A DNA stretch of 64,000 bases from Methanomassiliicoccales archaeon (GCA_050010535.1 JBEKKT010000001.1:1372-65371); one strand, 5' to 3'; shown: positions 8,811 through 55,603, counted from the first letter of the stretch. Notes: a model not told the origin generated them from the sequence alone. Numbers and translations are program-made.

Positions 8811-9116
8811 ATGGTACTGACACCACACATGCGGCAAATGGGTGTGACACCGAACCTTTTGAAAACGACGAAACAGGTAGTGTGCCCGATGTGCGGGCAC
8901 GAGTTCAGCCTGTTCCAGTCAAGGGCCATTGCGTGCAGGGGGTGCAGGAGAGCCGCAACTAGCTGCGAGAATGCACGCTGCCCGAGATGCGACTTTGAGT
9001 TCCCGTTGACGCTGATGCATGTCAATAACGCGCAGCGGCAAAGGGAGATCTCGACCTACATGAATAGCATCCTTGCCAACTACAACAGAAGCGTCGGCAA
9101 GAAAGGGACGCGCTAA
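8811..9116 (+). CDS. Small Cys-rich zinc-ribbon-like protein
   Basis: CPMC, CRGC, C, CPRC; purine-rich RBS-like sequence upstream. Confidence 0.75.
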   Translation: MVLTPHMRQMGVTPNLLKTTKQVVCPMCGHEFSLFQSRAIACRGCRRAATSCENARCPRCDFEFPLTLMHVNNAQRQREISTYMNSILANYNRSVGKKGTR

Positions 9117-10483
9117 CCTTTCCGCCCGTATTTTGCAAGCACTTCGTGCCGGTACAGGGTCTTCCCGTTCACGTTGTTGATGTTGAACAGACAGAATGGG
9201 ATGAGCTTGCCGTCTGGCGTCACCGTGTGGATACAGCAGTTGCGAAGCCTTTCTGTTTCAACGTTCCACACGTCCTGGAACGGCATTGCTGAAACGGTCA
9301 AGTATTTGGTCTTCGCCCTCTCGATGAAGCCGAGCCATGTCCCGTCCAAATCGGCCTCACTGCTCGTTGAGATCGATTCCTCGATGTACCTCCAAAGATC
9401 GCAAATCTCCTTCCTGGTCTTCTTCGCGACCTCCTTGGTGTCCCTGGGAGGTCCCATCGCTCTTGCTGTCAGGGGCAGGAGAGTGCCGTCCTCCATGAGG
9501 ACCGACATCGACTTCGCGTCGCAATGGACATTCGCACAAGATGTGGGGATAAAGCTATCCACCCTGAGCTCGCCACCTGTTTGCTTCTCGATCTCCTTAA
9601 GAAGGTCCGGTAGAACGACTCGGTCTTCATCCCCAGGTACCTTGGGATACCTACCGAAATAGGCGAGGGGCTGGAAATGGATTCCCTTCACTGTCGGAAT
9701 CCATTTCTTGGCGAATTGGATAACGTCGCCGACCTGATGGAGATTAATGCCTGGCGCGACCACACATACGAGCGTCACACCCATCCCCACCTTCTTGCAG
9801 TTCTCGAGGGCTTTGACCTTCACGTCAAGGAGGTCCCTACCGCATGTCTTCTTGAAAACATCCCCTGTGACGCCGTCAAATGAGAAGTAAAGCGAGTCCA
9901 CACCTGCCTCCTTAATCTTCTTGAGATACTCAATGTCCTGACCGAGCCTTACGGCGTTCGTGTTCACCTCGATGTAATCGATGCCCATACTCTTGCCGAG
10001 CCTAACGATCTCTGGGAGATCGTCACGGATAGTCGGCTCGCCGCCGGAGATCTGTACGGCGATAGGATGTTGAACGTAATCGAGGATCGTCTGGTACATC
10101 TTCTTGATCTCCTCGATGGTTGGGTGGAAGTTGTAGTGCTCATTTGCACTCGCAAAACACACTGGACACTTCAAGTTGCACTTGTTCGTGACCTCAAGCA
10201 CAGCTAGGCAAGTATGCTGCTGGTGATCCGGACAAAGTCCGCAGATCTCCGGACAGGTGCCCTTGTTCTCGACAGCTATCTTCTGAGGCTTCGAAAACTC
10301 GCAGGCATATCGCTGCAGGTCCTTGTAATCCTCTACCCCTCTCCAGATCAGGACTTTGAAGGTGCCGTGCTCGGGACAGGTCTTCACAAGAAATATGTTA
10401 TCGTTCTCCGCGATCTTCTCAGCGGGTATCGTCTTCAAGCACTGAGGACAAAGGCTCTCGGTCTGCCCGATCTTCTCGCTCAT
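9113..10483 (-). CDS. Radical SAM protein, TrsS/Tes-like
   Basis: N-terminal CPQC..CPEHG, CPEICGLC, CNLKCPVC (CxxxCxxC), SGGEP, C-terminal FQD.WN..RLRNCCIH..IPFC. Confidence 0.88.
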   Translation of the reverse strand: MSEKIGQTESLCPQCLKTIPAEKIAENDNIFLVKTCPEHGTFKVLIWRGVEDYKDLQRYACEFSKPQKIAVENKGTCPEICGLCPDHQQHTCLAVLEVTNKCNLKCPVCFASANEHYNFHPTIEEIKKMYQTILDYVQHPIAVQISGGEPTIRDDLPEIVRLGKSMGIDYIEVNTNAVRLGQDIEYLKKIKEAGVDSLYFSFDGVTGDVFKKTCGRDLLDVKVKALENCKKVGMGVTLVCVVAPGINLHQVGDVIQFAKKWIPTVKGIHFQPLAYFGRYPKVPGDEDRVVLPDLLKEIEKQTGGELRVDSFIPTSCANVHCDAKSMSVLMEDGTLLPLTARAMGPPRDTKEVAKKTRKEICDLWRYIEESISTSSEADLDGTWLGFIERAKTKYLTVSAMPFQDVWNVETERLRNCCIHTVTPDGKLIPFCLFNINNVNGKTLYRHEVLAKYGRKG

Positions 10484-10596
10484 GTCTTCCACCAGGATTA
10501 TGCTGACGGAACGGAGTTATTGCTTTTCTACTTTTCTGAGAAGAGGTCGCCGGCGTTCAAAGTTGCCAGGAATAGCTGACGCTGTTGGATGAATAT

Positions 10597-10628
10597 GAAA
10601 AAGAGTTTAAGAGGCCGCAATCGCGGCC
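10597..10628 (-). terminator. Putative terminator (GGCCGC hairpin plus T-rich tract)
   Basis: GGCCGC-N4-GCGGCC at 10613-10628, followed on the minus strand by TCTTTTT, just downstream of the 10639 stop. Confidence 0.45.
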
Positions 10629-10638
10629 CAAAATGTGC

Positions 10639-11100
10639 TTAAGCGCGCTTCTTTTCGAACAACCCTTCCGCAGCTGCGAGCGTCAAAGTTGCTAGGTATT
10701 CTTCCACCCAAGAGTCCTTGCACGTCGTGCAGACGACAGCGGGCCCGTTCCTCTTGACGGTCAGGTACTCCATCTCGACATGTCCGTACATGGCGGGTTG
10801 ATTGCAGTGGACGCAGACGTAGTTGGTGGGGTCGGTTGCATTCATTATGCCACCGAGCTTCATCCTGTGGGAGTATGCAGTCACCAGCGTAGCGTGCTTG
10901 GTAACCATGCCGTTCGTCTCATAGACCGCATATATTGTGACTTCCCCGATGCGTTTCTTTGCAATGAATTTTGAAGTTCCCTTGACCATGAGCTTCTTCT
11001 TCGATGACTCGGCGGTCTTAATCACGTCATCGACGTCCGCTTCCTTGATACCTCTCTTGCCGAGCACTTCCTTCACATTGTCCGGGATCTTGATGTCCAT
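10639..11100 (-). CDS. DVU_1557-like redox/zinc protein fused to an N-terminal 'AYSHRM' domain
   Basis: C-terminal CVHC..CTTC..VEEYLA..AEGLFEKK; GAGGTGA RBS before ATG 11100. Confidence 0.65.
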   Translation of the reverse strand: MDIKIPDNVKEVLGKRGIKEADVDDVIKTAESSKKKLMVKGTSKFIAKKRIGEVTIYAVYETNGMVTKHATLVTAYSHRMKLGGIMNATDPTNYVCVHCNQPAMYGHVEMEYLTVKRNGPAVVCTTCKDSWVEEYLATLTLAAAEGLFEKKRA

Positions 11101-11110
11101 TTCGTTCACC

Positions 11111-12229
11111 TCACCATGTCCCATACGTTCCGACATCCCTTGCCGCTTTTACCATCGCTAGGAGGTTGCCTGGAATCGTATACGGCGGAGTCTCGCAAGC
11201 AGTACCAAGTATGTAGCCCTTCTGGGTGTCGCGTCCTGCGAGGATCTGTGCCTTCGACTGTTCGTATACCACCTTGGGATTGGGGTTGATCATAAGCTTC
11301 GTGTCCACGGAACCCATGATCGTCGCTCTGTTCCCGAACTCCTGCTTCAGGAGCGATGACGGGAACACGTTTCTCCCCGAGTATCCAATGTGGATAACGG
11401 TAAACGGCGACCAGAACAGCGTGTCCTTGAACACCTTGTAGTCGGTCTGGTGGTTACCGCATAGGTGATAGAATAGCTGAGGTCCTGCCCCCCTTCTGAA
11501 GGACTGGTCGACATAGTACTTCATGTAGTCGGCCCCGAATGCCTTCACATCCTCATCGGAGAAGATGTCGTTGTTCGCAAGAACGGAACCGATGATCATC
11601 ATCGCCATTCCGAACTTGTTCGCCGTCCCAACCGCACCGTTTATGGCCGTATCGGTGAACTTCTTGACCAACTTGTGTGCCGCTTCTCGTTCTGTGAAGG
11701 TCCACATTATGAAGTTCTCGGCGCCGCACAGCTCGGCTGCTCCACCAACCAAGTCAAATCCGTATGCAATCGGAACCAACGTCATGGGGAGATTCTTCTG
11801 GACATACTCATACATCCTGATGAACTCGGGAAGAGTATGTCCCTTCATCAGCTCGTCCACATCGGGCACGTGGATGTTGTCCACTTGCCCGGGTTCCGTA
11901 ATGATCGGACCTGTCGAGATCGGGGGCAGCGTGTCTTTGTACTGCAGTGTGAGTCCGAGCTCCCTTACCCACGGCAACGAGTAGAACCAGTGCGTCACTG
12001 GCAACAGGTCGTACAGGTGGGAAATATACCCGACGCAGTGGATACCGAGCTCAGGCTTCTCGTAGAAGTCTCGAATCGTGAATCCGCATGCTACCGCAGC
12101 ATGCGACAAAATTATTGGATCCACGTCGATCCTGTCATGCGGTACATCGACAAACGGGGAGGCGAAGCGCTTCGTGGCATTTGCGTGCCACTTCGCATCC
12201 ATTGCTGGAAATAGCTCTTCATAGCCCAT
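11111..12229 (-). CDS. UroD/MtaA-CmuA family methyltransferase
   Basis: HLCG (HxC Zn ligands), MGSVDT, GYILGTACETP, PGNLLAMVKAAR. Confidence 0.8.
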   Translation of the reverse strand: MGYEELFPAMDAKWHANATKRFASPFVDVPHDRIDVDPIILSHAAVACGFTIRDFYEKPELGIHCVGYISHLYDLLPVTHWFYSLPWVRELGLTLQYKDTLPPISTGPIITEPGQVDNIHVPDVDELMKGHTLPEFIRMYEYVQKNLPMTLVPIAYGFDLVGGAAELCGAENFIMWTFTEREAAHKLVKKFTDTAINGAVGTANKFGMAMMIIGSVLANNDIFSDEDVKAFGADYMKYYVDQSFRRGAGPQLFYHLCGNHQTDYKVFKDTLFWSPFTVIHIGYSGRNVFPSSLLKQEFGNRATIMGSVDTKLMINPNPKVVYEQSKAQILAGRDTQKGYILGTACETPPYTIPGNLLAMVKAARDVGTYGTW

Positions 12230-16175: not shown

Positions 16176-17108
16176 ATGAGACTCTGGGATTTCGGGAGAC
16201 TGCACAATTCCAAGTTGAAGATAGGCGAGAGAATCGGCAAACCACTTGGCCTGGTCGATGGCAGCCAGGTCTTCAGCACAATGTTTCGCTATGACTACAA
16301 CGGACGCCACAGCTACGAAATCGTGCTTTCCACTTTCGGTCCTGAGAACTACAGGCAGATATGCTCTGCCACATTTTACATGCTAGATGTTCCCGGCGCA
16401 TGTGCGCAAACCGCGAAGCACTTGGGGGAAAGGAACATCGATATACTGAACTCGGTTTCGCTGAGCATGATCTCCAACGTCTGTATGATGTGGAAGATGC
16501 TCATCGACCTAAGCTACTATGGAGACCCAAACACGCTGAAGGAGGAGTTTGAGCGTTTGAAGAGAGACCAAGCGCCGGCGATCGATAAGGTAGAGGCGAT
16601 GGAAATCGAGCCCTCCCACATCAGCGACAGATACACGAAAGGTGTCGTTGCGCCAAGTGCAGTCGGGAAGACAAGAACGACCAGGAAGATGCACAGGACC
16701 CCTTCGATAATCAAGAACGGGGAGTTCGAAATCCCTTCGGACTACATCAGCATGATCGAGGGTATCGGGGAGGGGCAGATGGTAATGATGGTCGGGGACA
16801 CCGACTCCTGGGTTCTGTCAATCACGTTCCTGAATCCCAATACACAATTGATGGAGATCGACTTCACGATACCTGACAGACCAGGTGCGATATTCGAGGT
16901 CACTAGCGCCTTGTCGAAGCACAACATCAATCTGATATCGGTGTACACAAAGGTCCTCATCTACTACGAAACGATGACGCTGGAACTTGTTGCGGATGTG
17001 AGCAACTCCGACCTTGACGCCGAAGGCCTCAAGACGAGACTGAACGAGGTCCTCGCCGGTCTGAGAGGTAAGTACAGCCTGTCTGCCTGCGAGCCCATAG
17101 AGGTCTAG
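16176..17108 (+). CDS. ACT domain-containing protein
   Basis: Two ACT-like motifs (DVPGACAQ..NIDIL; DRPGAIFEV..NINLI). Confidence 0.75.
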   Translation: MRLWDFGRLHNSKLKIGERIGKPLGLVDGSQVFSTMFRYDYNGRHSYEIVLSTFGPENYRQICSATFYMLDVPGACAQTAKHLGERNIDILNSVSLSMISNVCMMWKMLIDLSYYGDPNTLKEEFERLKRDQAPAIDKVEAMEIEPSHISDRYTKGVVAPSAVGKTRTTRKMHRTPSIIKNGEFEIPSDYISMIEGIGEGQMVMMVGDTDSWVLSITFLNPNTQLMEIDFTIPDRPGAIFEVTSALSKHNINLISVYTKVLIYYETMTLELVADVSNSDLDAEGLKTRLNEVLAGLRGKYSLSACEPIEV

Positions 17109-17446
17109 TCTTATTTGCACAAGGAATCTGAGCGCGTTCATTCATCAACAAGAAGTGCTCGGAGTGAGTTCTTGAGATGAAATTTCGGCCTCCGAGAGCA
17201 TCCTTCGATTTGCGATAAGAATACGCGTCCAGACGATGGGATCTGAAAAAGACTTAAATATCGTTAAGATTGTGAATCAGTCGACCCTTCCGAAGCGGAA
17301 ATGATTAACGAGGAGGAAGTTCATCCCGGCAGATATAAGATTTGACATCATAGGAAGGAAGGCGATTGCCTGATTAAGCATATAGTGAAGGCAAACCGAC
17401 CGGCATTGAAGATTCTGCCCTCACCATTGGAAGAAGGAAGCAAGGA

Positions 17447-18412
17447 GTGATCGGAGTGGGAGAAGTACCAATCCCCAGAGAAAAGTGGACAGGGAAGATT
17501 GGAATCACAACACTTGGAGCGACATCTCAGGAGGGGGGAACTAGAGGGAGGAGGATCCTGATTGGTGGTCAGACAGGAATGCCTTTCTTGTCCTACGAGG
17601 GGGGGACCCCGAACAGACCCGCAATCGCAGGAGAAGTCATTGACACGATCAGGGACTACCCTGAGCTTGCGAAGAAACCCTTCGGCCATGCGATTAACGA
17701 CCCGGCGAAGTGGGCGAAAGTGTGGGTTGAACAGTTCGGAGCGGATATTATCTGCCTAAGGCTCCTCTCCACAAACCCTGAGGAAGAAGATAGATCCGCG
17801 GAGGAAGCCGCTGAGATTGTCAGACAAGTACTTGAAGCTGTCAGCGTGCCCTTAATCGTCTACGGCTGTGGAAACGAGGAGAAAGATGCAAAGACAATGG
17901 AAGAAGTCAGCAGAGTCGGTGCGATGGAAAGACTGTTGCTGGCTCAAGCAGAAGAAACCGCTTACAAATCAATCTCTAAGGCAGCGATGGCCGGCAATCA
18001 CGCTATTGTTGCGTTCTCGAATCTTGACATTAATCTAGCCAAGCAGTTAAACATCCTTCTCACGGACCTTGGAGTGAAGAGAGAGGACATCGTGATGGAC
18101 CCTCTGCAAGCCAGCCTGGGAACCGGTCTGGAGTACTCTTATTCGGTCAACGAGCGGATCAACCTGGCTGCCCTTACGGGGGACTCTATGCTGCAGATCC
18201 CGATGGTCTGTGATATTACTGCGGCCTGGAAAACGAGGGAAGCCACGGATGAGAACGAATTGTTGGGGGACCCGGGTGAGAGGGCGGTGTGGTGGGAGGC
18301 AGCCACCGGACTTGCTGCCCTAATCTCCGGCGCATCTATGCTCGTCGTCAGGAGCCCACTGGCCGCGAGAATTCTTAACGACGCACTTGACGATTTGACA
18401 GAGGGGGGATGA
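17447..18412 (+). CDS. acsD: Corrinoid Fe-S protein small subunit (AcsD/CdhD)
   Basis: IGGQTGMPF, DPAKWAK, DINLAKQLN, MDP..LG.GLEYSYS..ERI.LAAL.GD. Confidence 0.92.
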   Translation: MIGVGEVPIPREKWTGKIGITTLGATSQEGGTRGRRILIGGQTGMPFLSYEGGTPNRPAIAGEVIDTIRDYPELAKKPFGHAINDPAKWAKVWVEQFGADIICLRLLSTNPEEEDRSAEEAAEIVRQVLEAVSVPLIVYGCGNEEKDAKTMEEVSRVGAMERLLLAQAEETAYKSISKAAMAGNHAIVAFSNLDINLAKQLNILLTDLGVKREDIVMDPLQASLGTGLEYSYSVNERINLAALTGDSMLQIPMVCDITAAWKTREATDENELLGDPGERAVWWEAATGLAALISGASMLVVRSPLAARILNDALDDLTEGG

Positions 18413-18413
18413 A

Positions 18414-19739
18414 ATGCCGACCGCAATCGAGATATTCAAGCTGCTGCCGAAGAAGAACTGCGGGGAGTGCAAATTCCCGACCTGTCTCGCGTTCGCGATG
18501 CAACTGGCGAATCAGAAGGCAAAGTTGGATGATTGTCCGCACGTCTCCGAAGAGTCAAAGGGACTCCTCGCCGCTTCCGCCGCACCCCCGATAAGGTCGG
18601 TCAGGATCGGCACTGGGGAAAACAGGTTGGAAATCGGAGACGAAACGGAACTGTACAGACACGAAAAGAAGTTCTTCCACCCAACCTGCTACGCCATCGC
18701 AGTCTCCGACAAGTCTTCCATACAAGAACGCGAGAAGAGGGTGGAAAAGGTGAACCGACTCAAGTTCGAGCGGGTCGGCCAAATCTTGAAGATAGATATG
18801 ATAGGGGTGAGGAATGATTCCGGAGATGCGAACACGTTCGCTGATGCGGTCGAGGAGGTTTCGAACCACACCGATCTGCCCCTGATACTGTTCACTAGTG
18901 ATCCAAATTCCATGAGAGCAGCTGCAGCGAAAATCGCTGTCAAGATTCCGCTCTTGCATGCTGCCACGTCATTGAATGTCGATGCGATGGCTGCCATTGC
19001 GAAGGAAATGAAGTGCCCCCTGGTCGTACGCGAGGATGGGGATCTAGACAAGCTTGTGGATCTCGCACGGAAGGTGAAGGCAATCGGTGTCGAGGACATG
19101 GTCGTCGACTTTGGACCGAAATCCCTCAAGGACCTCCTCGAGAAAAGCACCATAATCAGGAAGGTCTCTGTGAAGAAAACGTTCAGAGGACTAGGCTACC
19201 CTATAATGGTTGATGCAGGTAGCGGAGAGAAAGCTGTCCTCATGGCTATGATTTCGACAATGAAATACGGAAGCATCATTGCGTTCGACGACATCAGTCC
19301 CGCTGAGATATTACCGCTCTTTGTCCTGAGGCAGAATATCTTCACCGATCCACAGGTACCAATACTGGTGAAGCCGGATCTTTACCCCATCAACAATCCG
19401 GACGAGAATTCACCTTTGTTGTTCACTACTAACTTCTCCCTTACATACTTCACGGTCGTTGGCGACCTAGAGAAGAGCAAGATGCCCGCATGGCTGCAGG
19501 TCATCGATACGGAGGGATTGTCCGTGATGACGGCTTTTGCCGCAGGGAAGCTCACACCCGAGACCGTGGCCAAGGCGCTGGAGGCATCAGCAGCAGTCGA
19601 GAAGTCGAAACGAGGGGATATCATCGTCCCTGGGCTGCTTTCCAGGATGAGTTGGAGACTTCAAGAAATCACAGGTCTTAATACGATCATCGGACCGAAG
19701 GAGTCAAGCGCACTGCCGAAGTTCATGAAGAGCCTATAG
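18414..19739 (+). CDS. acsC: Corrinoid Fe-S protein large subunit (AcsC/CdhE)
   Basis: LPKKNCGEC..PTCLAFAM..CP Fe-S motif, LYRHEK, RQNIFTDPQ, TTNFSLTYF. Confidence 0.95.
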   Translation: MPTAIEIFKLLPKKNCGECKFPTCLAFAMQLANQKAKLDDCPHVSEESKGLLAASAAPPIRSVRIGTGENRLEIGDETELYRHEKKFFHPTCYAIAVSDKSSIQEREKRVEKVNRLKFERVGQILKIDMIGVRNDSGDANTFADAVEEVSNHTDLPLILFTSDPNSMRAAAAKIAVKIPLLHAATSLNVDAMAAIAKEMKCPLVVREDGDLDKLVDLARKVKAIGVEDMVVDFGPKSLKDLLEKSTIIRKVSVKKTFRGLGYPIMVDAGSGEKAVLMAMISTMKYGSIIAFDDISPAEILPLFVLRQNIFTDPQVPILVKPDLYPINNPDENSPLLFTTNFSLTYFTVVGDLEKSKMPAWLQVIDTEGLSVMTAFAAGKLTPETVAKALEASAAVEKSKRGDIIVPGLLSRMSWRLQEITGLNTIIGPKESSALPKFMKSL

Positions 19740-19805
19740 GTCGACTGATGTATTTGTGAAGAAATGTGAAATCGTCTTTCTCAAGCCCTGGCTCTGAATA
19801 GTTCC

Positions 19806-20147
19806 TTATGAGTAGGGCACCGTCATCAAATTGAGGACGTAGGGAACGATCATAACACAGGCAGACGCAAGGATCTGAGCCAGATGGTAATGTGAATGGT
19901 GAACTTCAATCCACGCTTTCTTGTGTTTCGATAGGTGGAAACAATCGAAAACGATAACAGTATCACTGGCAGAAGCCAGAACAGCAGCCACGAGAGAACC
20001 AGTACCCCAACGACCTCTACGGAGGTGGAAAATGGGTACCAGATCCAAAGTAGATGGTGTAATGCTGAGTATGAAGAGTATTCCGGTGCTAAGAAGCAGC
20101 CAGGTTGATCGAGAACGCTCCAATTTCGATACCACATAAGAAACCAC
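19806..20147 (-). pseudogene. Small membrane protein, apparently frameshifted
   Basis: Hydrophobic segments alternate between two overlapping frames (19806..20147 and 19850..20137). Confidence 0.4.
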
Positions 20148-20327
20148 TGGGCGGTGTTAGCGGCTCTTGCCTGTCAATTGAAGACCACAGTTGCCTTGTC
20201 CATCTTCCAGAATATCGATCTGTCTCTTGGGTAATCAACGAAGTGACCTACCCTCGCTACATGACTCTCAGCAGTCAGCTTGTCAGACTTCCAACCGACT
20301 TCTTACGAGATCTCACGTTCATGGAGA

Positions 20328-21359
20328 TCAGTGTTCATCGTGGAGCCAGTACTTCTCTCTCAAGCCTCGGGAAACCGCGAGAAGGGTCTCAAGAATCTTA
20401 CCGCTGAGGGATTCATCGACTCCTCCGAGTCCGCATTCTGGCGTGATGAGCGAGTTCCGCACCAGAATGTCCTTGTCTATTCCTTTTTCAGTTAACATCT
20501 CGAACGACGACACTGCCTGCTCAACCAGCGACCTCACGGTCTCGTCTCTCATCCCGTCCTCGTTGTTTGGAACGATCCCCCAAGCGAGAGAACCACCGCG
20601 TTTCAGAAAGCGTTCGACCTCATTCGGGTAGAGCGCGACTGTGTAGGCGTAATTATACGCGTCGAAGGAGAGGACGTCGATGTCGGTCGTCATCAGTCTC
20701 GGCCAATCGGTATTCCCGCAGCAGTGTATTGCCTTCCAGCTCTTCAATCCAGAAAGGACCTCGTTGATCCATTTGACTGCATCATCCCACGAGATGCTTG
20801 CGAATGGCGTACCTAGCAGTGATAGGCTCGGTTCGTCGATGAACATGATCGTGTTAGAGCATTTGGATCTCAGGACGTTCTCCTGCCAGCGGGCCATCAT
20901 GTTGAGGTTCTTGCGGATTATCTCATTGTACGTCTCATCGTATATCACAGGTCTTCCATCAGTGTCGAATATCTGCAATCCTGTGCTGATTGGCCCGGTC
21001 ACCTGACCCTTCACAGCTTTGACCCCGATAGGGAGGCTCCGCGAGACGAACTCGTAGAATCCGCTGAAGCTATCCTTAGGATATGAAAAATCATCCACTT
21101 TTTCGGAGACCACGCTGGTATAGAACTTCTCTGGATCGTAATCTCTTAGATCGACCGTGATCCTCTTCTTGGCAGCATCTATCCTTATGCCAGGGAGATG
21201 CGTGGAGTACTGCGCATACATGTTCTCAGTGAACCCCCTTGCGGGCAGCTGCGGCCAGAATGGCAAGAGACCGTCATGTCCTATTATCATGTCCACGGCT
21301 TTCTTAGGATCCGAATGCGGAAGTGATCCTATGCAAGTTGGAAGACAATTCCAGACCAT
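20328..21359 (-). CDS. Core folate-independent methionine synthase (MesB-like; MetE C-terminal barrel only)
   Basis: PTCIGSLPH, WPQLP, VKGQVTGP, FIDEP, HCCG, LAWGIVP, ITPECGLG; GGTGG RBS before ATG 21359. Confidence 0.8.
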   Translation of the reverse strand: MVWNCLPTCIGSLPHSDPKKAVDMIIGHDGLLPFWPQLPARGFTENMYAQYSTHLPGIRIDAAKKRITVDLRDYDPEKFYTSVVSEKVDDFSYPKDSFSGFYEFVSRSLPIGVKAVKGQVTGPISTGLQIFDTDGRPVIYDETYNEIIRKNLNMMARWQENVLRSKCSNTIMFIDEPSLSLLGTPFASISWDDAVKWINEVLSGLKSWKAIHCCGNTDWPRLMTTDIDVLSFDAYNYAYTVALYPNEVERFLKRGGSLAWGIVPNNEDGMRDETVRSLVEQAVSSFEMLTEKGIDKDILVRNSLITPECGLGGVDESLSGKILETLLAVSRGLREKYWLHDEH

Positions 21360-21468
21360 CGACCACCAGATTTTCGCTTGACCATAATAAACCTTCCTTG
21401 ACGTAGGATACGAGAAACAGGAACAGCCCTCAGTAATGAACACAGGGCAAGTGGGTCCCGAGGAAGAA

Positions 21469-23364
21469 TCAGCCACGAAGCAGTTTCTGAACGGTTGGGA
21501 ACTGTTCGACGTCTGTATGCGGCAGGAAAAGGGATGATGAGAATTCGTCGAAGAAAGCCTGTGTCGTGCTCAACTCGAAATACGTCATCGAGTCGTAGAC
21601 CGCCCTGGCCTCGACCCGTTTTTTCGCTGAAAGCAGAGTGAGACGGGCCCCCGCGAGTGCTCCGTTTCCGAGGAAGAAGAAGCGTTCGAAGGGCAAATCG
21701 GGAAGCAAACCGATGGTGATTGCTCTCTCCGTATCAATGTAGTTTCCGAATCCCCCCGCGATGTGTATTTTCTGGACATCCGAGAAGCTGAATTTCAGAC
21801 TCCTTAACAAGACATTGCAGGCGGAGTAAACCGCCCCCTTCGTCCTAATGATGTTGGCAATTTCGTCATCAGTGACAACGATGTCCTTCGCCTCCCCAGC
21901 ACCCAGAGTTGTCTCCCTGGCCCAGGCGACGACGAACTCTAGACCCTGCTTTCCCCTTCTAACTCTTGGGGTCGAGAGTTCCTGTATGCGCCCTTTTCTA
22001 TCAACAATCCCTCGCAGAAACATCTCTGCCAGGAGATCGATTAGGCCGGACCCGCAGATCCCCCTAGGCTTCACGCCACCGATCGTCGAGTACTTGACAT
22101 CGCAGCGGTCGAGTATCCTGACGCGCTCGATCGCCCCGGTCATCGCCCTCATCCCAGCCGCCACTTCGCCGCCTTCGAACGCAGGACCAGCCGAGCACGA
22201 ACAGGAGACCATCCAGTCCGAATTCCCCAGCACGATCTCCCCGTTCGTCCCAACATCGATGAGAAGCGATAGCTCCGACCGCTTGTTCATCCCCGAGGCG
22301 ATGACGCCAGCGGTTATGTCCCCTCCGACATAGCTCGACCTGCCTGGAACGCAGTAGACTGGTGCATCTGGATGAATGTCAATTCCGATGTCCTTCGCCC
22401 TGAATATCGGAGGCACATTCACCGCCGATATGTATGGCTCGTACCTGATGTATCGAGGGTCAAGTCTCAGGAACAAGTGTATCATCGTTGTGTTGCCAGA
22501 AACGGACATGCTTGTTATTTCATAACTTAATACCTTGTTCCCGGGTCCCAGGCTCTTTTCTGACTCGTCGCATGCCTGTGCAATTAGATTGTTGACAGTG
22601 TCGAGGATCATATTGTTCAGCCTCCCGAGGCCCCCCTCCTCTGCATACGTGATCCTGGAAAGGACGTCCTCGCCGTATCCAATCTGCTTGTTATAGTCGG
22701 AGGTCTGAGCTATATCTCGTCCATCTGCCAAATCTATTATGGAAAGGACGACCGTCGTGGTCCCGATGTCAAGCGCTATCCCGTAATTGCGAGACGAAGC
22801 ATCTCCTGGCCTCACGTCAATGAGCACTCTTGGCCTAGAGACCTCGTCCAGGACCGCAGTAATTTTCCAATCACTATCCCTGAGGATGCTCGGTAACGTC
22901 TTCAGTGATCTAAGAGTGCTCTTGAGTTCGCGGGCACCGAACCCCATTCCGCGGACGATTCTCTCCATGTCCCCGATGTTGTCCACCAGCGTTGGCGCAG
23001 ATAGCTCTAAGTAACGCGCGGCAGAAAGGGGTGTAAGATCATCGATATCGCCCGCGAGGTATGATGTGAGTATTTGATGGGAGGCGATCTCGGCTTCCTC
23101 CGGGATGATGACCTCCCCATCACCAGTTATCCTGGTCTTGCACGCGAGGCGATAGCCGCTCTCCCAGTCTTTCTCGCCTATGAGATGACAACGGGGCGAG
23201 TCGAACGAACCTCTGGTCAAGACACGGCACTTGCCACACGTCCCCTTCCCCCCGCAAACGCTGCTCATAAGAACGCCTGCGCTGAACGCAGCATCAAGGA
23301 TCGTCGTGCCTTCTTCGACCGTAACGGTCAGCGATTTCGGGCGAAAGGCGACGGAATACCTCAT
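21469..23364 (-). CDS. Reductive activator of corrinoid proteins (RACo/AcsV; 2Fe-2S plus ASKHA ATPase)
   Basis: CGGKGTCGKC..RLAC, DIGTTT, DVGTNGE, AGPAFEG, GICGSG. Confidence 0.92.
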   Translation of the reverse strand: MRYSVAFRPKSLTVTVEEGTTILDAAFSAGVLMSSVCGGKGTCGKCRVLTRGSFDSPRCHLIGEKDWESGYRLACKTRITGDGEVIIPEEAEIASHQILTSYLAGDIDDLTPLSAARYLELSAPTLVDNIGDMERIVRGMGFGARELKSTLRSLKTLPSILRDSDWKITAVLDEVSRPRVLIDVRPGDASSRNYGIALDIGTTTVVLSIIDLADGRDIAQTSDYNKQIGYGEDVLSRITYAEEGGLGRLNNMILDTVNNLIAQACDESEKSLGPGNKVLSYEITSMSVSGNTTMIHLFLRLDPRYIRYEPYISAVNVPPIFRAKDIGIDIHPDAPVYCVPGRSSYVGGDITAGVIASGMNKRSELSLLIDVGTNGEIVLGNSDWMVSCSCSAGPAFEGGEVAAGMRAMTGAIERVRILDRCDVKYSTIGGVKPRGICGSGLIDLLAEMFLRGIVDRKGRIQELSTPRVRRGKQGLEFVVAWARETTLGAGEAKDIVVTDDEIANIIRTKGAVYSACNVLLRSLKFSFSDVQKIHIAGGFGNYIDTERAITIGLLPDLPFERFFFLGNGALAGARLTLLSAKKRVEARAVYDSMTYFELSTTQAFFDEFSSSLFLPHTDVEQFPTVQKLLRG

Positions 23365-42828: not shown

Positions 42829-43656
42829 CTAGACGACGACCTTCGTTCTGTGGTATTTCATCCCAATACTCTCTGGCGCAGCTCCAAACGCAAGTGCCAG
42901 CAGCTCTGAGATGTACAGGACAGGAAGGCCCTCTTTTTGCTTGATGTCGAACTGAACGAAGCAGAAAGGACACGGGGTTAGGATTGAGTTCGCTTTCGCA
43001 CGCTTGAATTCCTTGATGGAGTCCTCGAACACACGCAACGAGATATCTTCACTGATCCCTGAGATGCCTCCGCCACAGCACTTCGGCCAGTCTTCGAAAT
43101 ATGCTACCTCTGAACCGACCCAATCGACGATATCTGAGAGGATATGAGGCGAGAAGTGGGAATCTATGCTCGTGACCACGCTCGGCCTCACGATATGGCA
43201 CCCCGAATGAACCGCCATTCTGAGATTCCCCTGAGGAGAGACGACGGTACAACGAACCCTACTCTCCATATCTTTAAGAATCCCGCACAGGTGATGTACG
43301 TCGACAGTTCCCTTGTATTCCATTCCTATCTCATCCAAAATGGAATTGACCCGGTCCCTTTCCTCCTTCGACTCCAGGACATGACGGGCCTCTTTCAAAG
43401 AAACGTAACATCCATTGCAGAGCGTCAAGATGTCCTTGCCGCCGTCCTCCGCGATTGACAACATTCGCGCGGCCGTCAGGAGCCAAGTATCCAAAGCGAG
43501 AGACCTCAGACCAATCGGTTCGACACAACATGTGGCGCAGGGAAGTATCTCATGACCTATTCCCAGTTTGTCCAGGATAAATAGAGAGGATCGCTCGAGG
43601 AACGGTAATCTAGTCGGAATGAGGCAGCCCCTGAAGAGGTAGAATTCATCGCTCAA
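42829..43656 (-). CDS. hdrB: Heterodisulfide reductase subunit B-like
   Basis: GC..CC..CNGC and HSGCH..CCGGG..CPFC CCG domains. Confidence 0.88.
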   Translation of the reverse strand: MSDEFYLFRGCLIPTRLPFLERSSLFILDKLGIGHEILPCATCCVEPIGLRSLALDTWLLTAARMLSIAEDGGKDILTLCNGCYVSLKEARHVLESKEERDRVNSILDEIGMEYKGTVDVHHLCGILKDMESRVRCTVVSPQGNLRMAVHSGCHIVRPSVVTSIDSHFSPHILSDIVDWVGSEVAYFEDWPKCCGGGISGISEDISLRVFEDSIKEFKRAKANSILTPCPFCFVQFDIKQKEGLPVLYISELLALAFGAAPESIGMKYHRTKVVV

Positions 43657-44125
43657 GCTTGACCCTCCCGAGCCTCGTCTTCTCAACAATGACCTTCAGA
43701 TCCTCAAGAGATGATCGGTCCACTTCAAAATCGTCAAGACCCATTTCCTTCCTGAGCTTCTTCGTCAACCCGGTCTTCGGAAACGACAAGCCCGTATCGA
43801 TGAAGAGCTTGGCCTCCTCAGCGAAACGGTCAGGACGATTGCCGGCCTCCGCCGCGAGGTTCCTTATGAGGGTAATCACTGTCGCTGGCTCGACGCCGAG
43901 TTGGCACCTCTCGGTGCAGCCCTGGCACATCATGCAAAGCCATACGGATGAATCCTTGGAAAGCTCGAGAGCGCCGATGGATGCCCGTTCGATGATCTCC
44001 CCGACACGGATCCCCCCGTGCTGAAAGCTGGGGCAGACTCCGGAGCATTGCCCACATTGATGACACTTCCACAGCTCCACCTCCGGAAGAATATTCCGGA
44101 GCGCGTCTGGAAATGACGGATCCAT
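43646..44125 (-). CDS. hdrC: Heterodisulfide reductase subunit C-like
   Basis: CHQCGQCSGVCP and WLCMMCQGCTERC. Confidence 0.85.
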   Translation of the reverse strand: MDPSFPDALRNILPEVELWKCHQCGQCSGVCPSFQHGGIRVGEIIERASIGALELSKDSSVWLCMMCQGCTERCQLGVEPATVITLIRNLAAEAGNRPDRFAEEAKLFIDTGLSFPKTGLTKKLRKEMGLDDFEVDRSSLEDLKVIVEKTRLGRVKLER

Positions 44126-44238
44126 CACCGAGACCTTCACAAGGGGAGCCGATAGCGCCCAGCGTTTATACCGTTTTCCTTTCAACGTTCGGTCGCCTGC
44201 GCAATGCTCAAAAGGGATAGGCTCGATAGACCTGGTCG

Positions 44239-44424
44239 ATGGAGATCGAGCAACAGAACTGTCAGTTCTGCGGGAAGCCCGCCAAGCAGTTCCTCTTTGC
44301 AGCATTCGTTTGCGACAATGAGGAATGCATAGAGAAAGCGAGGCTGGAGAGAGGAGGACCAGGCGGGCACATCAAGAGGAAACTCCAGGAGACGGGCGTC
44401 ATCTGGAGCCCCGACGAGAAGTGA
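44239..44424 (+). CDS. Small zinc-finger-like hypothetical protein
   Basis: CQFC..VC...EC, RGGPGGH; antisense to the hdr genes. Confidence 0.65.
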   Translation: MEIEQQNCQFCGKPAKQFLFAAFVCDNEECIEKARLERGGPGGHIKRKLQETGVIWSPDEK

Positions 44425-44429
44425 TCGTG

Positions 44430-44495
44430 GAGAGCGGCCATATCCACAATGCCGGCTGTGTTCGTGCCGCAGTAACAAAGGAAGACACCAATCAT
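44430..44495 (-). pseudogene. Relic of an HdrA N-terminal domain
   Basis: GGAGGT RBS then MIGVFLCYCGTNTAGIVD, matching VGVFVCRCGTNIASVVD inside the intact HdrA; similarity lost after about 22 codons. Confidence 0.7.
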
Positions 44496-44620
44496 CCGGA
44501 ACCTCCGGGGGACAGCGGCGGAATCGGGTTGTGGCTATTCAACATTGTGAGTCTACCATCGGTTGGCGCGTCAGACAGATATTAAAGAGCTTTCGGGAGA
44601 TAGTGACGGAAGGGCGGAAA

Positions 44621-45802
44621 TCACTGTGTGCCAGGATTCCCGGCATTGACCGAATCCTCTCCGGTCGTCTTCGGATTCCGAATACCGCTCGAAGCGAGAA
44701 CATGAATGTCGGATATCGGGTAGCTGCTTCTCGGGCTCGGGGACGAATGCTCATGCAACGCGCAGCTGAAATGAATCAGACACTTGGGGCATGCGGTGAC
44801 AAGTTCGTCCGCGCCAGTCGTCTGCGCCTCTTTCAGTCTATCGAGCTGCCACTCCTTTGTGGAGGCATCACAGTTTACCCAGCACGAAATCCCGCAACAC
44901 GCGCTCATCGAGCCTGACCTTGGCATCTCGATCAATCTGCCCATGTCCTTGAGGATGTCCCTGGGCTCCTGGATCATACCAGAGTGCCTGGACAATCTGC
45001 AAGGATCGTGGTACGTGAAGGTCTTGCCCGAATCGCAAAGGGATATCTCACAGTCCTTGACGGCTTTTCCGACAATCGCCGTGAGGGTTTTGACCTCAAA
45101 ACTCAGGGGACCGAGAAAGCGCGGGTACAGATCCTTCAGTGCAGTGTAGCACTCCGGACAGAATGTCACGACCTCATTCGCTCCGGTCGCTTCGATCGCC
45201 CTCACGTTCGCCTCGGCCAGCCTCCCGAAGGTGTCCTGATCTCCAAGCCAGTATGCATCGTGCCCGCAACACCTCTCGTGCTCGAGCAAACGGGGCCTTA
45301 TCCCGATGGAATTCAGCAGACGGACGGAGGATCTCGGGATCTCAAGAAGATCACTCCTTATGTGTTTGAAGACCACGTCGAAGTACGGCGTGCATCCGAC
45401 GAACAAGAGCGTCGAAGAATCCGGATCGATCCTCAGGTCCGGGGTTATCCAGTTGTTCATGCGGGGCTTGATGCGGCTGAACGATGACATATTCTGAATC
45501 ACCCGGAAGATGTCGCTATGGGTTGTCTCGGGAGGAATTGAGCGACTCAGGGAGGGGCGCACCTCTCTGACGAACTCGTGGAACTTCACGCCTGAGGTGC
45601 AGAGCTCCGTGCACATGCCACAGGTCATGCATTCCCACAGTCCCTTGTCACTCGCAAGATTCCCCGAACCAACGTACTCCTCGACAACCTTCCTCGGGGA
45701 AAACTCGCCAGCCTTGTGGGACACCGGACACCCCCAAGTGCACTTTCCGCAATTGATGCAGCTCGACACTCTGTACCTTGCCGCGCTCTCTTCAACCGTC
45801 AC
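44621..45802 (-). CDS. HdrD-like Fe-S oxidoreductase (HdrC plus HdrB domains)
   Basis: Two CxxCxxCxxxC clusters; CCG domains (CCG..CPEC; YHDPC..CCG..CPKC). Confidence 0.88.
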   Translation of the reverse strand: MTVEESAARYRVSSCINCGKCTWGCPVSHKAGEFSPRKVVEEYVGSGNLASDKGLWECMTCGMCTELCTSGVKFHEFVREVRPSLSRSIPPETTHSDIFRVIQNMSSFSRIKPRMNNWITPDLRIDPDSSTLLFVGCTPYFDVVFKHIRSDLLEIPRSSVRLLNSIGIRPRLLEHERCCGHDAYWLGDQDTFGRLAEANVRAIEATGANEVVTFCPECYTALKDLYPRFLGPLSFEVKTLTAIVGKAVKDCEISLCDSGKTFTYHDPCRLSRHSGMIQEPRDILKDMGRLIEMPRSGSMSACCGISCWVNCDASTKEWQLDRLKEAQTTGADELVTACPKCLIHFSCALHEHSSPSPRSSYPISDIHVLASSGIRNPKTTGEDSVNAGNPGTQ

Positions 45803-46208
45803 GGGAATCCCTCCTCAGCGGGCCGAGCTCACTGATCACAGCAACGAACTCATTTGCGATTCGTGCGAACCTTTCTCCCTCCGATGCAGAGACCCAGTCC
45901 AGCAGCAGCCTTCGATCATCGATGCCGAGGAGTTCGAGCAACTCCTTTGTACTATCGATCCTCTTCTGCGCCTCCTCGTTCCCCGCCAAGTAATGACAAT
46001 CCCCCATGTGACAGCCCAATACCATTACGCCGTCGGCGCCCTTCTCGTAGCACTTCAGTATCAGCGCCGGATCGACCCTTCCAGAGCACATGACTCTCAA
46101 GATACGTATGTCCGGCGAGTATTGTCTCCTCGATATGCCAGCGAGGTCCGCGCCGGCATAAGCGCACCAGTTGCAGCAGAACGCGACTATCCTCGGTTTC
46201 CAGCTCAT
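45792..46208 (-). CDS. mvhD: MvhD-type [2Fe-2S] subunit
   Basis: FCCNWCAYAGAD, MCSGRVD, GCHMGDCHY, WVSASEG. Confidence 0.95.
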   Translation of the reverse strand: MSWKPRIVAFCCNWCAYAGADLAGISRRQYSPDIRILRVMCSGRVDPALILKCYEKGADGVMVLGCHMGDCHYLAGNEEAQKRIDSTKELLELLGIDDRRLLLDWVSASEGERFARIANEFVAVISELGPLRRDSRDG

Positions 46209-49165: not shown

Positions 49166-49472
49166 CAGATTCTGCTCCAGAACTTGGTCGTTGTAGGCAT
49201 CACAGTCCAAAAAACCTTTCTACGTCAGAAATCGGCATTCAAAACTCGTCTGGCTCGCCGAAGCGCTCGTCCGTCTTCTTCCTTGCCCGTTCCCCAACGC
49301 CCGTGCACCGCTGCGCGGGCCCTTTCCAATTTTTCATGCAATGTCAGGAGAAGGACTGGGCTCAAGGAGATTCGGAGTAATCGACTGCCTCCTTCTTCCA
49401 TTGACGTCCACATGCCCGTTCTTGAGGTCCCGAGTGAGTTGAAAATGACCCTGTCTTGTCATTTATGATTTT

Positions 49473-52542: not shown

Positions 52543-53271
52543 TTGGAGGAGGTCCGATTGACATCAAATGAGAGACTTAAGACGTATGTTGAGGGTTTCG
52601 ACAAGATACTGGAAGGCGGTGTTCCAGCCGGACAAGTTGTTCTCGTATCCGGGACACCTGGAACGATGAAGTCGTCCCTGACATACTACATGCTCTACCA
52701 CCACGCAAAAGAGAACGGTAGGACCGGCGTCTACGTTACGTTGGAACAGTCGAGAGAGAGCCTCGTCCGCCAGATGGAGAAGATGGGGATGAAGGCGAAG
52801 GACGTCGGAGAAAAGCTGAACGTCCTGGACCTGGGCCTCATACGGAAGAAGCTTAAGCAGATCTCTGGCGGCGGCTCATGGATGCAGGTCTTCAAGTCGT
52901 ACCTCGAGAACCTGAAAGAGAACCTGAAGTACGATCTCCTTGCAATCGATTCCCTGGACGTGCTCGAGACCATGGCCGACATAGAGAACCGCAGGACCGA
53001 ACTCTTCTACCTCTTCGATTGGTTGAGAGGGCTCGATGCAACTGTACTCCTCATCTCGGAGGCGTCTCCTGAGAAGATACTAGAAGGCTCTTTCGCTGAA
53101 GGCTATCTTTCGGATGGCATCATATCGCTCAAGATGCAGGTTGTTAGGGAAGTGGAGACCCAGAGGCGTATCAGATGCGTCAAGATGAGGGAGACGAATC
53201 ACGATCCTTCGTACTTTTCTCTTCTCTTCACTGGAGGCAAGTTCCAGGTTACTAAAGTGATAAGCGAATGA
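52543..53271 (+). CDS. KaiC/RAD55-like ATPase
   Basis: GTPGTMKS, TLEQ, IDSL, KMRET. Confidence 0.88.
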   Translation: MEEVRLTSNERLKTYVEGFDKILEGGVPAGQVVLVSGTPGTMKSSLTYYMLYHHAKENGRTGVYVTLEQSRESLVRQMEKMGMKAKDVGEKLNVLDLGLIRKKLKQISGGGSWMQVFKSYLENLKENLKYDLLAIDSLDVLETMADIENRRTELFYLFDWLRGLDATVLLISEASPEKILEGSFAEGYLSDGIISLKMQVVREVETQRRIRCVKMRETNHDPSYFSLLFTGGKFQVTKVISE

Positions 53272-53285
53272 CGCCTGGTGTCTGA

Positions 53286-54803: not shown

Positions 54804-54883
54804 AGCGTGTGGAAATCAGATTTGCGAGACAGCGACGAAAAATTAAATAGCCTCAGACCACTTAACCGCTATCCGGGAGGATA

Positions 54884-55603
54884 ATGACAGCGCAGATCGA
54901 GCGGGTGCGGACGTTCATTCACAATTTTGACGAAAACCTGCAAGGGGGAATACCGAAAGGCCAGGTGGTTTTGATTACCGGCACCCCGGGCACGATGAAA
55001 TCCTCCCTCGCGTATAGCATTCTCTACAGGAACGCGCTCGAGAACAAGATCAAGAGCGTGTACATGACCCTCGAGCAATCGAGAGAGAACCTCATACAAC
55101 AGATGGCGACGATGGGAATGGACGATGAGGCTGTGAAGGAGTATGTCCACGTTCTGGACCTGGGCCTTATAAGGAAAAGCCTGACGCAGATCAGTGCGAA
55201 GGGGACTTGGCTTCAGGTCTTCAAAATGTATGCGGACAGCCTGAAGCACAGCATTGGATACGAGATCCTAATCCTGGACTCGCTGGATGTCCTTGAGATG
55301 GCCGCGCAGATGGGCGAGAGTCGACGCACGGAGCTGTTCTACCTGTTCGAATGGCTCAGGAATCTGGGTATCACATCCTTCCTGATCTCCGAGACTTCGC
55401 CGGAAGCGATGCTCGAGAACAAGTATGACGAAGGATACCTGGCGGACGGTGTGATAAGCCTCAAACTTCAGGAGATTGGCGAGACGGACATTCAGAGACG
55501 CATAAGGGCGGTCAAACTGAGAAGCACGAACCACAAGACCGGATACTTCTCTCTCCTGTTCAGTGACGGAGTGTTCCGCGCGACCCAGGTAATAACGGAA
55601 TAG
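54884..55603 (+). CDS. KaiC/RAD55-like ATPase (paralog of 52543..53271)
   Basis: GTPGTMKS, TLEQ, LDSLDVLE, RRTELFYLF, KLRST. Confidence 0.88.
   Translation: MTAQIERVRTFIHNFDENLQGGIPKGQVVLITGTPGTMKSSLAYSILYRNALENKIKSVYMTLEQSRENLIQQMATMGMDDEAVKEYVHVLDLGLIRKSLTQISAKGTWLQVFKMYADSLKHSIGYEILILDSLDVLEMAAQMGESRRTELFYLFEWLRNLGITSFLISETSPEAMLENKYDEGYLADGVISLKLQEIGETDIQRRIRAVKLRSTNHKTGYFSLLFSDGVFRATQVITE

Follow-up and report, generated by a model that had tools for sequence, protein, structure and literature searches.

Retention of a CoFeSP–RACo–MesB gene module without acetyl-CoA synthase in a genus of Methanomassiliicoccales and its putative role in methionine synthesis

This report deals with four genes found in a stretch of 64,000 nucleotides (hereafter the window, G000:C1:1372-65371) from the 1.49-Mb draft genome of a Methanomassiliicoccales archaeon. 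They encode the two subunits of the corrinoid iron–sulfur protein (CoFeSP), AcsD and AcsC, its reductive activator RACo and a core methionine synthase of the MesB type. In most genomes of the order, such genes lie in a cluster that also encodes acetyl-CoA synthase (ACS) and carbon monoxide dehydrogenase (CODH). In one genus, this carbonyl branch and its maturase have been lost by clean excision, while CoFeSP, RACo and MesB have been kept intact. Judging from gene content, the retained proteins probably make methionine together, the methyl group passing from methyl-tetrahydrofolate (methyl-H4F) through AcsE, encoded elsewhere in the genome, to CoFeSP and then, by MesB, to homocysteine, with RACo reactivating CoFeSP.

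The draft genome consists of 47 contigs (completeness 93.46%, contamination 0.85%). Its assignment to a Methanomassiliicoccales-type lineage is supported by McrA, which it encodes, and by the names of the best homologues of the central enzyme. The window carries the archaeal markers PCNA, Alba, GGGP synthase and RadA, the latter (a RadA/Rad51 recombinase, 65-1558, + strand) being split by an intein (PF14890 match within PF08423). The survey of the order covered 151 genomes of Methanomassiliicoccales, this one included, in which AcsC was called present at E<=1e-30; as these genomes share kinship, the survey counts are non-independent observations. The genus comprises five genomes, i.e. the genome under study and the congeners G005 (99% complete), G028, G036 (66%) and G040, of which only the former and G005 are more than 90% complete. 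G010 (97%) belongs to the sister genus g2. A broader set of MesB loci (17 archaeal and 63 bacterial) was obtained by retaining 80 out of 600 pattern matches to a 19-sequence alignment.

The CoFeSP–RACo–MesB locus

The locus and its immediate left neighbour are organized as follows.

16176..17108, + strand: ACT-domain protein, 310 aa (PF01842, E 1.5e-9; NF006352, 94 bits, under the cut-off)
17109..17446, no strand: intergenic stretch, 338 bp, at the position of the 1358-aa CooS-AcsB fusion gene of the sister genus
17447..18412, + strand: acsD, CoFeSP small subunit of the short type, 321 aa (NF003376, 348 bits, cut-off 280; PF03599, E 1.8e-41)
18414..19739, + strand: acsC, CoFeSP large subunit, 441 aa (NF003195, 540 bits, cut-off 306; PF04060 FeS domain, E 6.6e-14)
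19740..20327, no strand: spacer, 588 bp, where relatives carry a CooC/AcsF-like P-loop ATPase of about 250 aa
20328..21359, - strand: mesB, putative core methionine synthase without folate domain, 343 aa (from fold, ligand spacing and homologues)
21469..23364, - strand: RACo, 631 aa (Fer2 PF00111, RACo_linker PF17650, Raco_middle PF17651 and RACo_C_ter PF14574, all over the Pfam cut-offs)

Open reading frames (ORFs) and profile matches thus bear out acsD, acsC, RACo and the 343-aa MetE-core enzyme as placed by the initial annotation, which had also rightly described AcsD as a short, bacterial-like type: relatives' AcsD proteins have 317–338 aa, and that of G010 is 68% identical. AcsC ends in a corrinoid domain and displays, at its N-terminus, a Cys-x2-Cys-x4-Cys-x16-Cys cluster motif made up of C16, C19, C24 and C41, all four unchanged across 14 sequences. 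The pair therefore has the composition that defines a CoFeSP: the large subunit combines an N-terminal 4Fe-4S motif, a CdhD-type barrel and a corrinoid domain, and the small one is of the CdhD type. These two genes are the only ones of the CdhD family in the whole genome. RACo possesses the complete four-domain architecture (2Fe-2S ferredoxin, linker, middle and ASKHA ATPase domains) and is 62% identical to its G010 orthologue. Two tandem full-length RACo paralogues, 34–37% identical to the RACo of the window, are encoded at G000:C3:63506-67870 and a RamA-like protein at C38:7096-8343; all three are presumably activators of methanogenic corrinoid proteins.

Loss of ACS, CODH and the CooC-like gene

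Among 48 ORFs scanned in the window, none matches CdhC, Prismane, Pterin_bind or MTHFR, in agreement with the initial annotation, which had found no acsB, CODH, acsE or pterin one-carbon (C1) gene there. At the genome scale, PF03598 (AcsB/CdhC) and PF03063 (CODH) give no match each, and the 1358-aa CooS-AcsB protein of G010 used as a tblastn query retrieves no remnant in the window (E<=1) or in the genome (E<=0.01). CdhC was found in none of the four congeners, G005 included, so that the remote AcsB once considered as a methyl source has no candidate gene in this genome or in the 99% complete congener. Searched in three congeners, the CODH (Prismane) domain has no match in G005 and G040; the match in G028 was rejected as a CODH, being a hybrid-cluster protein (NF003658, 574 bits). 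As neither AcsB/CdhC nor AcsA/CooS/CdhA was recovered by these searches, the genome is not assigned to the Wood–Ljungdahl/CODH-ACS type. By comparison, CdhC is present in 4/4 genomes of the sister genus, and Prismane in G010, the only one of them searched.

The gene order in G010 is enoyl-CoA hydratase (ECH), (ABC transporter), ACT, CooS-AcsB, AcsD, AcsC, CooC-like, Mes, RACo and GdhA. The window keeps this order, with proteins 56–80% identical, minus the CooS-AcsB and CooC-like genes, and G005 displays the same arrangement as the window, likewise minus both genes. The CooS-AcsB fusion of G010 (1358 aa, L037:7912-11988) matches NF040764 with 991 bits and TIGR01702 with 702 bits. At the CooC-like position, G010, G019, G042 and G006 carry a gene matching CbiA/AAA_31/ParA, and none of these four genes has a match in the window or elsewhere in the genome. 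The 338-bp stretch upstream of acsD, which is 82% identical over 152 bp to the equivalent G005 spacer, is the deletion scar of the CooS-AcsB gene. The 588-bp spacer between acsC and mesB, 71.5% identical over 369 bp to that of G005, is probably non-coding here; a 113-aa ORF within it was rejected as a gene, the similarity with G005 extending over two frames and reaching only 42% at the protein level vs 71.5% for the DNA.

Elsewhere in the order, the other AcsC-positive, CdhC-negative genomes (G027, G073 and G124, with AcsC at a contig edge) are probably assembly effects, and G032 (genus g3, 73% complete), initially counted as devoid of ACS, was withdrawn from that count, as one of its short contigs bears a CooS-like fragment. 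A fused CooS-AcsB of about 1360–1390 aa is encoded in many genomes of the order, and a stand-alone AcsB of about 720–760 aa in others. In genus g20 of family f7, the CdhC domain is weakly matched in all 8 genomes (E 7e-9 to 2e-35, frames of 653–728 aa, e.g. G057:C1:620900-621331), and AcsC, Mes and MetF were found in 0/8 of them; from its sequence, this protein looks like a divergent AcsB-like protein.

Identity of MesB and search for other methionine synthases

A GTG at 21476 opens the mesB ORF (382 aa), and the gene-caller version (P0001) has 320 aa. Since homologues of 340–343 aa cover 97–100% of the 343-aa form, the start at 21359 is retained as the best one; the core methionine synthase of Dehalococcoides mccartyi is likewise reported to have 343 aa (Deobald et al. 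2020, PMC7005905).

No Pfam family matches the protein; PF01717 (Meth_synt_2) is not matched at E<=0.01, nor anywhere in the genome at E<=1, and only 4 out of 68 members of the MesB family match it (best E 7.8e-6). The relationship of MesB with MetE rests on fold and motifs. The sole NCBIfam match is a methionine synthase model (E 2.4e-7). The family is nevertheless large, with 5126 matches at E<=0.001 among 7520 candidates of a 90%-clustered collection, and 1959 representatives at E<=0.001, including 390 at E<=1e-30, in a 50%-clustered library. The AlphaFold2 model computed from the alignment of 68 homologues has a pLDDT of 97.1. When this predicted structure is searched with Foldseek, the top matches are MetE catalytic domains and the MesD-type structure 3rpd (E 8e-11 to 3e-10), MtaA-like and UroD barrels ranking lower (E 4e-7 and weaker). 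As a single-sequence search of the PDB yielded nothing but designer PPR proteins, matched spuriously through repeats and discarded, and a profile search reached 3rpd at only E 0.44, the fold was settled by the fold search.

The initial annotation had pointed out the HCCG and PECG zinc motifs and the lack of an N-terminal folate-binding half. Both hold: the predicted Zn ligands (H212, C214, D233 and C309) and the predicted homocysteine-binding residues (S12 and D175) show either no variation or a conservation of at least 90% among the 68 homologues. In the characterised MesB Q3Z939, the Zn ligands are given as 214/216/235/311 and the homocysteine-binding Ser/Asp as 15/177 (Price et al. 2021, PMC7857596), i.e. 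an offset of -2 or -3 for each residue with an identical ligand spacing of 2/19/76, unlike those given there for MesA (2/22/61) and MesC (2/19/89). The third Zn ligand is an Asp, as in characterised MesB. The nearest relatives outside the order, among the 80 retained loci, belong to Chloroflexota and are 38–46% identical over their full length; many of them are labelled Dehalococcoidia, Dehalococcoidales or Dehalococcoidaceae. Price et al. define MesB by a phmmer score against DET0516 of D. mccartyi of at least 173 bits (strict) or at least 130 bits (broad) (PMC7857596). With phmmer, the protein scores 271–283 bits against proteins of three records labelled Dehalococcoidaceae and, with seven other bacterial records added, 265–321 bits over the ten records. 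On the basis of the MetE fold, the MesB ligand spacing and these Dehalococcoidaceae-labelled proxies used in place of DET0516, we file it as a MesB/core-MetE type enzyme, as the initial annotation had suggested. The adjacent CoFeSP genes acsC and acsD are a further trait of the MesB family. A complex prediction between AcsC residues 312–441 and MesB (score 0.00, mark 0.32) weighs neither way.

A genome search aimed at acsB, acsE, metE and metH recovered acsE only, the acsB, PF01717 and PF02574 domains not being found (PF02574: 0 matches), and tblastn revealed no Mes paralogue. MesB is thus the only methionine synthase candidate found in this genome, which also encodes PF01837 (homocysteine synthesis).

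AcsE and the H4F branch as putative methyl supply

The genome encodes a stand-alone AcsE-type methyl-H4F:CoFeSP methyltransferase of about 260 aa (NF005719, 297 bits, cut-off 259), which matches the folate module of MetH (TIGR02082 residues 340–598, E 2.3e-29). Its gene lies on contig C7 in the order PurH, AcsE, MetF, MetV-domain gene (PF12225), two HdrA-like genes, one unassigned gene and Fhs (formate-H4F ligase); FolD, serine hydroxymethyltransferase (SHMT) and dihydropteroate synthase (DHPS) are encoded elsewhere. G005 carries a cluster of the same type (75–94% identity), in which the succession of MetF, the MetV-domain gene and the two HdrA-like genes (G000:C7:66897-71983 in the genome under study) is kept. 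This succession is reminiscent of the MetFV-Hdr type methylene-H4F reductases known from acetogens. AcsE over the cut-off is present in this genome and in 3/4 congeners, and so is MetF, the exception being G036. This set of genes contradicts the notion of a folate- and pterin-free unit put forward in the initial annotation. It also removes the qualifier "self-contained", AcsE, MetF/MetV, Fhs, FolD and SHMT lying outside the module, and leaves standing the other part of that claim, a CoFeSP–RACo–MesB association without ACS/CODH and with conserved linkage.

The reverse reduction is observed in genera g18 and g11 of family f7, which have kept ACS, CoFeSP and Mes, while AcsE over the cut-off and MetF were found in 0/8 and 0/2 genomes, respectively. 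Their loci (e.g. L041 = G042:C2:1-19900) also carry RACo and a CooC-like gene. This set corresponds to the Dehalococcoides configuration as published (PMC7005905) and, by analogy, is a Dehalococcoides-like methionine route within an order of methanogens. In the genus under study, the simplest reading of the genes is that the H4F methyl branch would still end at CoFeSP, MesB instead of ACS being now its only known outlet.

Distribution of the cluster in the order and beyond

Mes was found in 98 of the 151 genomes, CdhC in 97, AcsC in 96, AcsE over the cut-off in 79 and MetF in 76. Both Mes and AcsC were found in 95 genomes and neither in 52; 3 genomes have only Mes and 1 has only AcsC. Of these four discordant genomes, three have a completeness of 59–73%, the other, G140, being split into about 180 contigs at a completeness of 96%. 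In the annotated loci of four other genera, RACo, Mes and a CooC-like ATPase of about 250 aa face, on the opposite strand, AcsC, AcsD and AcsB (often fused with CooS). The same order is found in the archaeal MesB loci, 14/17 of which contain AcsC, the remaining 3 ending short of it, and in most genomes of the order CdhC and mesB share a contig and are only a few kb apart. The RACo-mesB-(cooC)-acsC-acsD-CODH/ACS cluster is therefore the norm in the order, and the synteny invoked in the initial annotation is indeed conserved order-wide. The same observation removes the claim of an undescribed system: since mesB-acsCD operons in methanogens have already been reported, and MesB has been stated to be the only Mes type of Methanomassiliicoccales (Price et al. 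2021, PMC7857596), the clustering itself is not new.

The mesB-acsC linkage is mostly archaeal, as 61 of the 63 bacterial loci have no AcsC within 6 kb. The two others (L118 and L123), from an Actinomycetota metagenome-assembled genome and an Anaerolineales one, carry MetF and AcsE at most 6 kb from the MesB gene, and a methyl-folate-to-MesB route may thus also exist in bacteria.

Proposed mechanism and alternatives

The ancestral cluster would have comprised RACo, mesB and a cooC-like gene facing acsC, acsD and cooS/acsB, the four genes of the window being its surviving part. After deletion of the CODH/ACS fusion and of the CooC-like nickel maturase, AcsCD, RACo and MesB would have been retained because they jointly make methionine. 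Serine or formate would be converted into methylene-H4F by SHMT, Fhs and FolD, and methylene-H4F reduced to methyl-H4F by MetF/MetV with their HdrA-like partners. AcsE would then methylate Co(I)-CoFeSP from methyl-H4F, and the homocysteine thiolate activated by the zinc of MesB would take the methyl group of methyl-Co(III)-CoFeSP, yielding methionine. CoFeSP oxidised to Co(II) would be brought back to Co(I) by RACo, using ATP and a low-potential electron. Since ACS has been lost in one lineage and AcsE and MetF in another, the CoFeSP-to-MesB transfer appears as the step common to both, which suggests two possible ways of charging CoFeSP, one from each side, with MesB as the sink in both cases.

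Several points weigh against this scheme. We infer all its methyl-transfer steps, the identity of the pterin and a direct contact between MesB and CoFeSP from the genes, and the pterin may be other than H4F. Within the genus, the AcsE gene lies apart from the module, on another contig in the genome under study and at a distance of about 85 kb in G005; the AcsE and MetF genes of other families are found 6–10 kb from mesB on the same contig. Furthermore, AcsE is not a universal partner of MesB, as 20/98 Mes-positive genomes have no AcsE over the cut-off. In the published account, the in vitro use of a methyl donor by MesB-type enzymes concerns only free methylcobalamin (PMC7005905). RACo scores under the curated NCBIfam AcsV cut-off (NF040756, 612.7 bits vs 800), which is not a sign of decay, the orthologues of ACS-containing relatives across the order scoring alike (608–636 bits), and three further RACo/RamA paralogues are present in the genome. 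Finally, the absences are read from a genome 93.5% complete and from a genus in which only 2/5 genomes exceed 90% completeness and G036 lacks every gene queried.

The unit could instead be independent of folates and pterins, CoFeSP being methylated by an MtaB/MtaA-like or methylthiol enzyme or by a remote AcsB before MesB passes the methyl group to homocysteine. The methyl-reducing type of methanogenesis (McrA) with several corrinoid activators, the MtaA/URO-D-like gene located 5 kb away (11111-12229), the unlinked position of AcsE in the genus and the Mes-positive genomes without AcsE would all fit. However, AcsB was found neither by profile nor by tblastn searches in this genome or G005, the URO-D-like gene belongs to another gene group (with a TrsS-like radical SAM protein and a DVU_1557-family protein) and reaches 59.6 bits on MtaA models vs a cut-off of 244, and the Mes genomes devoid of AcsE all have ACS as an alternative source. 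CoFeSP is the known partner of AcsE, and intact AcsE and MetF/MetV have been kept in the genome and in 3/4 congeners. We therefore regard this explanation as unlikely. The main role of CoFeSP and AcsE could also be to shuttle methyl groups for the C1 pool or methanogenesis (methyl-H4F <-> methyl-corrinoid <-> coenzyme M), MesB being one acceptor among others or an incidental neighbour. Indeed, PurH and Fhs are encoded in the AcsE cluster, and Speth & Orphan proposed a methyl-H4F:coenzyme M transfer and an H4F branch used oxidatively in the order (PMC6147122). Yet an incidental neighbour would hardly co-occur with AcsC in 95 genomes vs 4 in which they are apart, nor be adjacent to it wherever the archaeal contig reaches; without ACS, loading of CoFeSP in the reverse direction has no known donor, and SHMT can supply methylene-H4F directly, all of which makes such a shuttle improbable. 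A related and doubtful possibility is that CoFeSP is a general methyl hub in the genus without ACS, loaded by a methanogenic methyltransferase (from methanol, methylamines or methyl-coenzyme M) besides or instead of AcsE, methionine then deriving directly from the energy substrate. If so, AcsE and MetF/MetV-HdrA working in reverse would feed the anabolic C1 pool and replace the carbon entry lost with ACS.

It is very unlikely that the four genes are decaying, non-functional leftovers of the lost carbonyl branch, as the deletion of their partners and the non-coding appearance of the remaining spacer might suggest, since all four ORFs are intact, the orthologues in G005, G028 and G040 (69–84% protein identity) are also intact save at contig ends, catalytic and cluster-binding residues are kept and no second methionine synthase was found in the genome. 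The draft state of the assembly leaves a place for ACS/CODH in the 6.5% that is unassembled, but this is hardly credible: the ancestral position is assembled and empty, with identical flanks, in both this genome and G005, and CdhC usually lies a few kb from mesB on the same contig.

Comparison with known systems

The methyl-H4F–AcsE–CoFeSP–MesB route proposed here shares the enzyme family and the proposed donor, methyl-CoFeSP, with the MesB/CoFeSP system described for D. mccartyi (PMC7005905, PMC7857596). It differs from it by the loss of AcsB/CODH and the retention of AcsE and MetF/MetV, and the methyl group should therefore come from a methyl-pterin. With the bacterial-type Wood–Ljungdahl cluster (AcsABCDE, CooC/AcsF, RACo/AcsV), it has orthologous AcsC, AcsD, RACo and AcsE; relatives in the order carry the full Wood–Ljungdahl set in matching gene order, whereas this genome is devoid of ACS, CODH and the maturase.

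The logic is that of MetH, split forms included, in which a Co(I)-corrinoid takes the methyl group from methyl-folate and passes it to Zn-activated homocysteine, a dedicated function providing reductive reactivation. AcsE would correspond to the folate module, CoFeSP to the cobalamin module, MesB to the homocysteine module and RACo to the reactivation module. Unlike MetH, the homocysteine domain PF02574 has no match in the genome and AcsE stands alone, with no fused pterin- and B12-binding architecture; the corrinoid is carried by CoFeSP, which consists of two subunits and contains a 4Fe-4S cluster, the module for homocysteine adopts the fold of MetE, and reactivation would be driven by ATP through RACo instead of S-adenosylmethionine (SAM) and flavodoxin. 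By analogy, the module may thus be considered MetH-like in function and made of separate proteins, without being a member of the MetH family. MtgBCD from Ruegeria pomeroyi is also described as a methionine synthase made of several proteins, one of them a separate corrinoid protein that connects the donor enzyme with homocysteine methylation; it differs by its corrinoid protein (MtgC), its donor (glycine betaine), its other methyltransferases and its occurrence in aerobic bacteria (PMC12478193).

Other genes of the window

In at least 3 genera, the gene for the ACT-domain protein is conserved on the left side of the CODH/ACS-CoFeSP-MesB cluster, and in the sister genus it lies directly upstream of the CooS-AcsB gene. 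The protein is 74% identical to its G010 counterpart and 37% identical to that of G042, and its N-terminal 170 aa or so are unassigned; that it might be an amino-acid-sensing regulator is only a guess. Further upstream, a row of three genes (9113-12229, - strand) not found in the CoFeSP module of relatives encodes a radical SAM protein that exceeds the TrsS cut-off (NF045646, 542 bits vs 490), a small protein in which a DVU_1557-family redox domain is combined with a "dicluster near Sec" segment, and the URO-D/MtaA-like protein (11111-12229), which lies 5 kb from the module and scores far under the MtaA cut-offs. The genes at 42829-49210 (- strand), among which one for an HdrA-like flavoprotein (1001 aa, several ferredoxin domains) beside those for CCG-domain (HdrB/D-like) and 4Fe-4S proteins, probably encode a heterodisulfide-reductase-type complex. 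Three successive KaiC-family ATPase genes (242, 505 and 239 aa) are located at 52543-55603 (+ strand).

Implications

All the parts of the module and the idea of a CoFeSP–MesB partnership were already known, and no new kind of enzyme or pathway is revealed; what is new is the configuration at the genus level and the paired reciprocal reductions. In the literature searched, the supplementary tables of Price et al. aside, no description was found of an ACS-less CoFeSP–RACo–MesB module fed by AcsE, and the Methanomassiliicoccales listing in their S1 Table might already show AcsCD-positive, AcsB-less genomes. The general statement that MesB-bearing Methanomassiliicoccales possess the Wood–Ljungdahl pathway is corrected.

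The published proposal that CoFeSP is the methyl donor of MesB has so far been based on co-occurrence with the Wood–Ljungdahl pathway. The genus described here is a natural deletion experiment that separates the CoFeSP–MesB partnership from acetyl-CoA metabolism, and the paired reductions make the published prediction directly testable. They also define a small set of genes (AcsE, AcsC, AcsD, RACo and MesB) that could be reconstituted as a putative MetH-like multi-protein methionine synthase.

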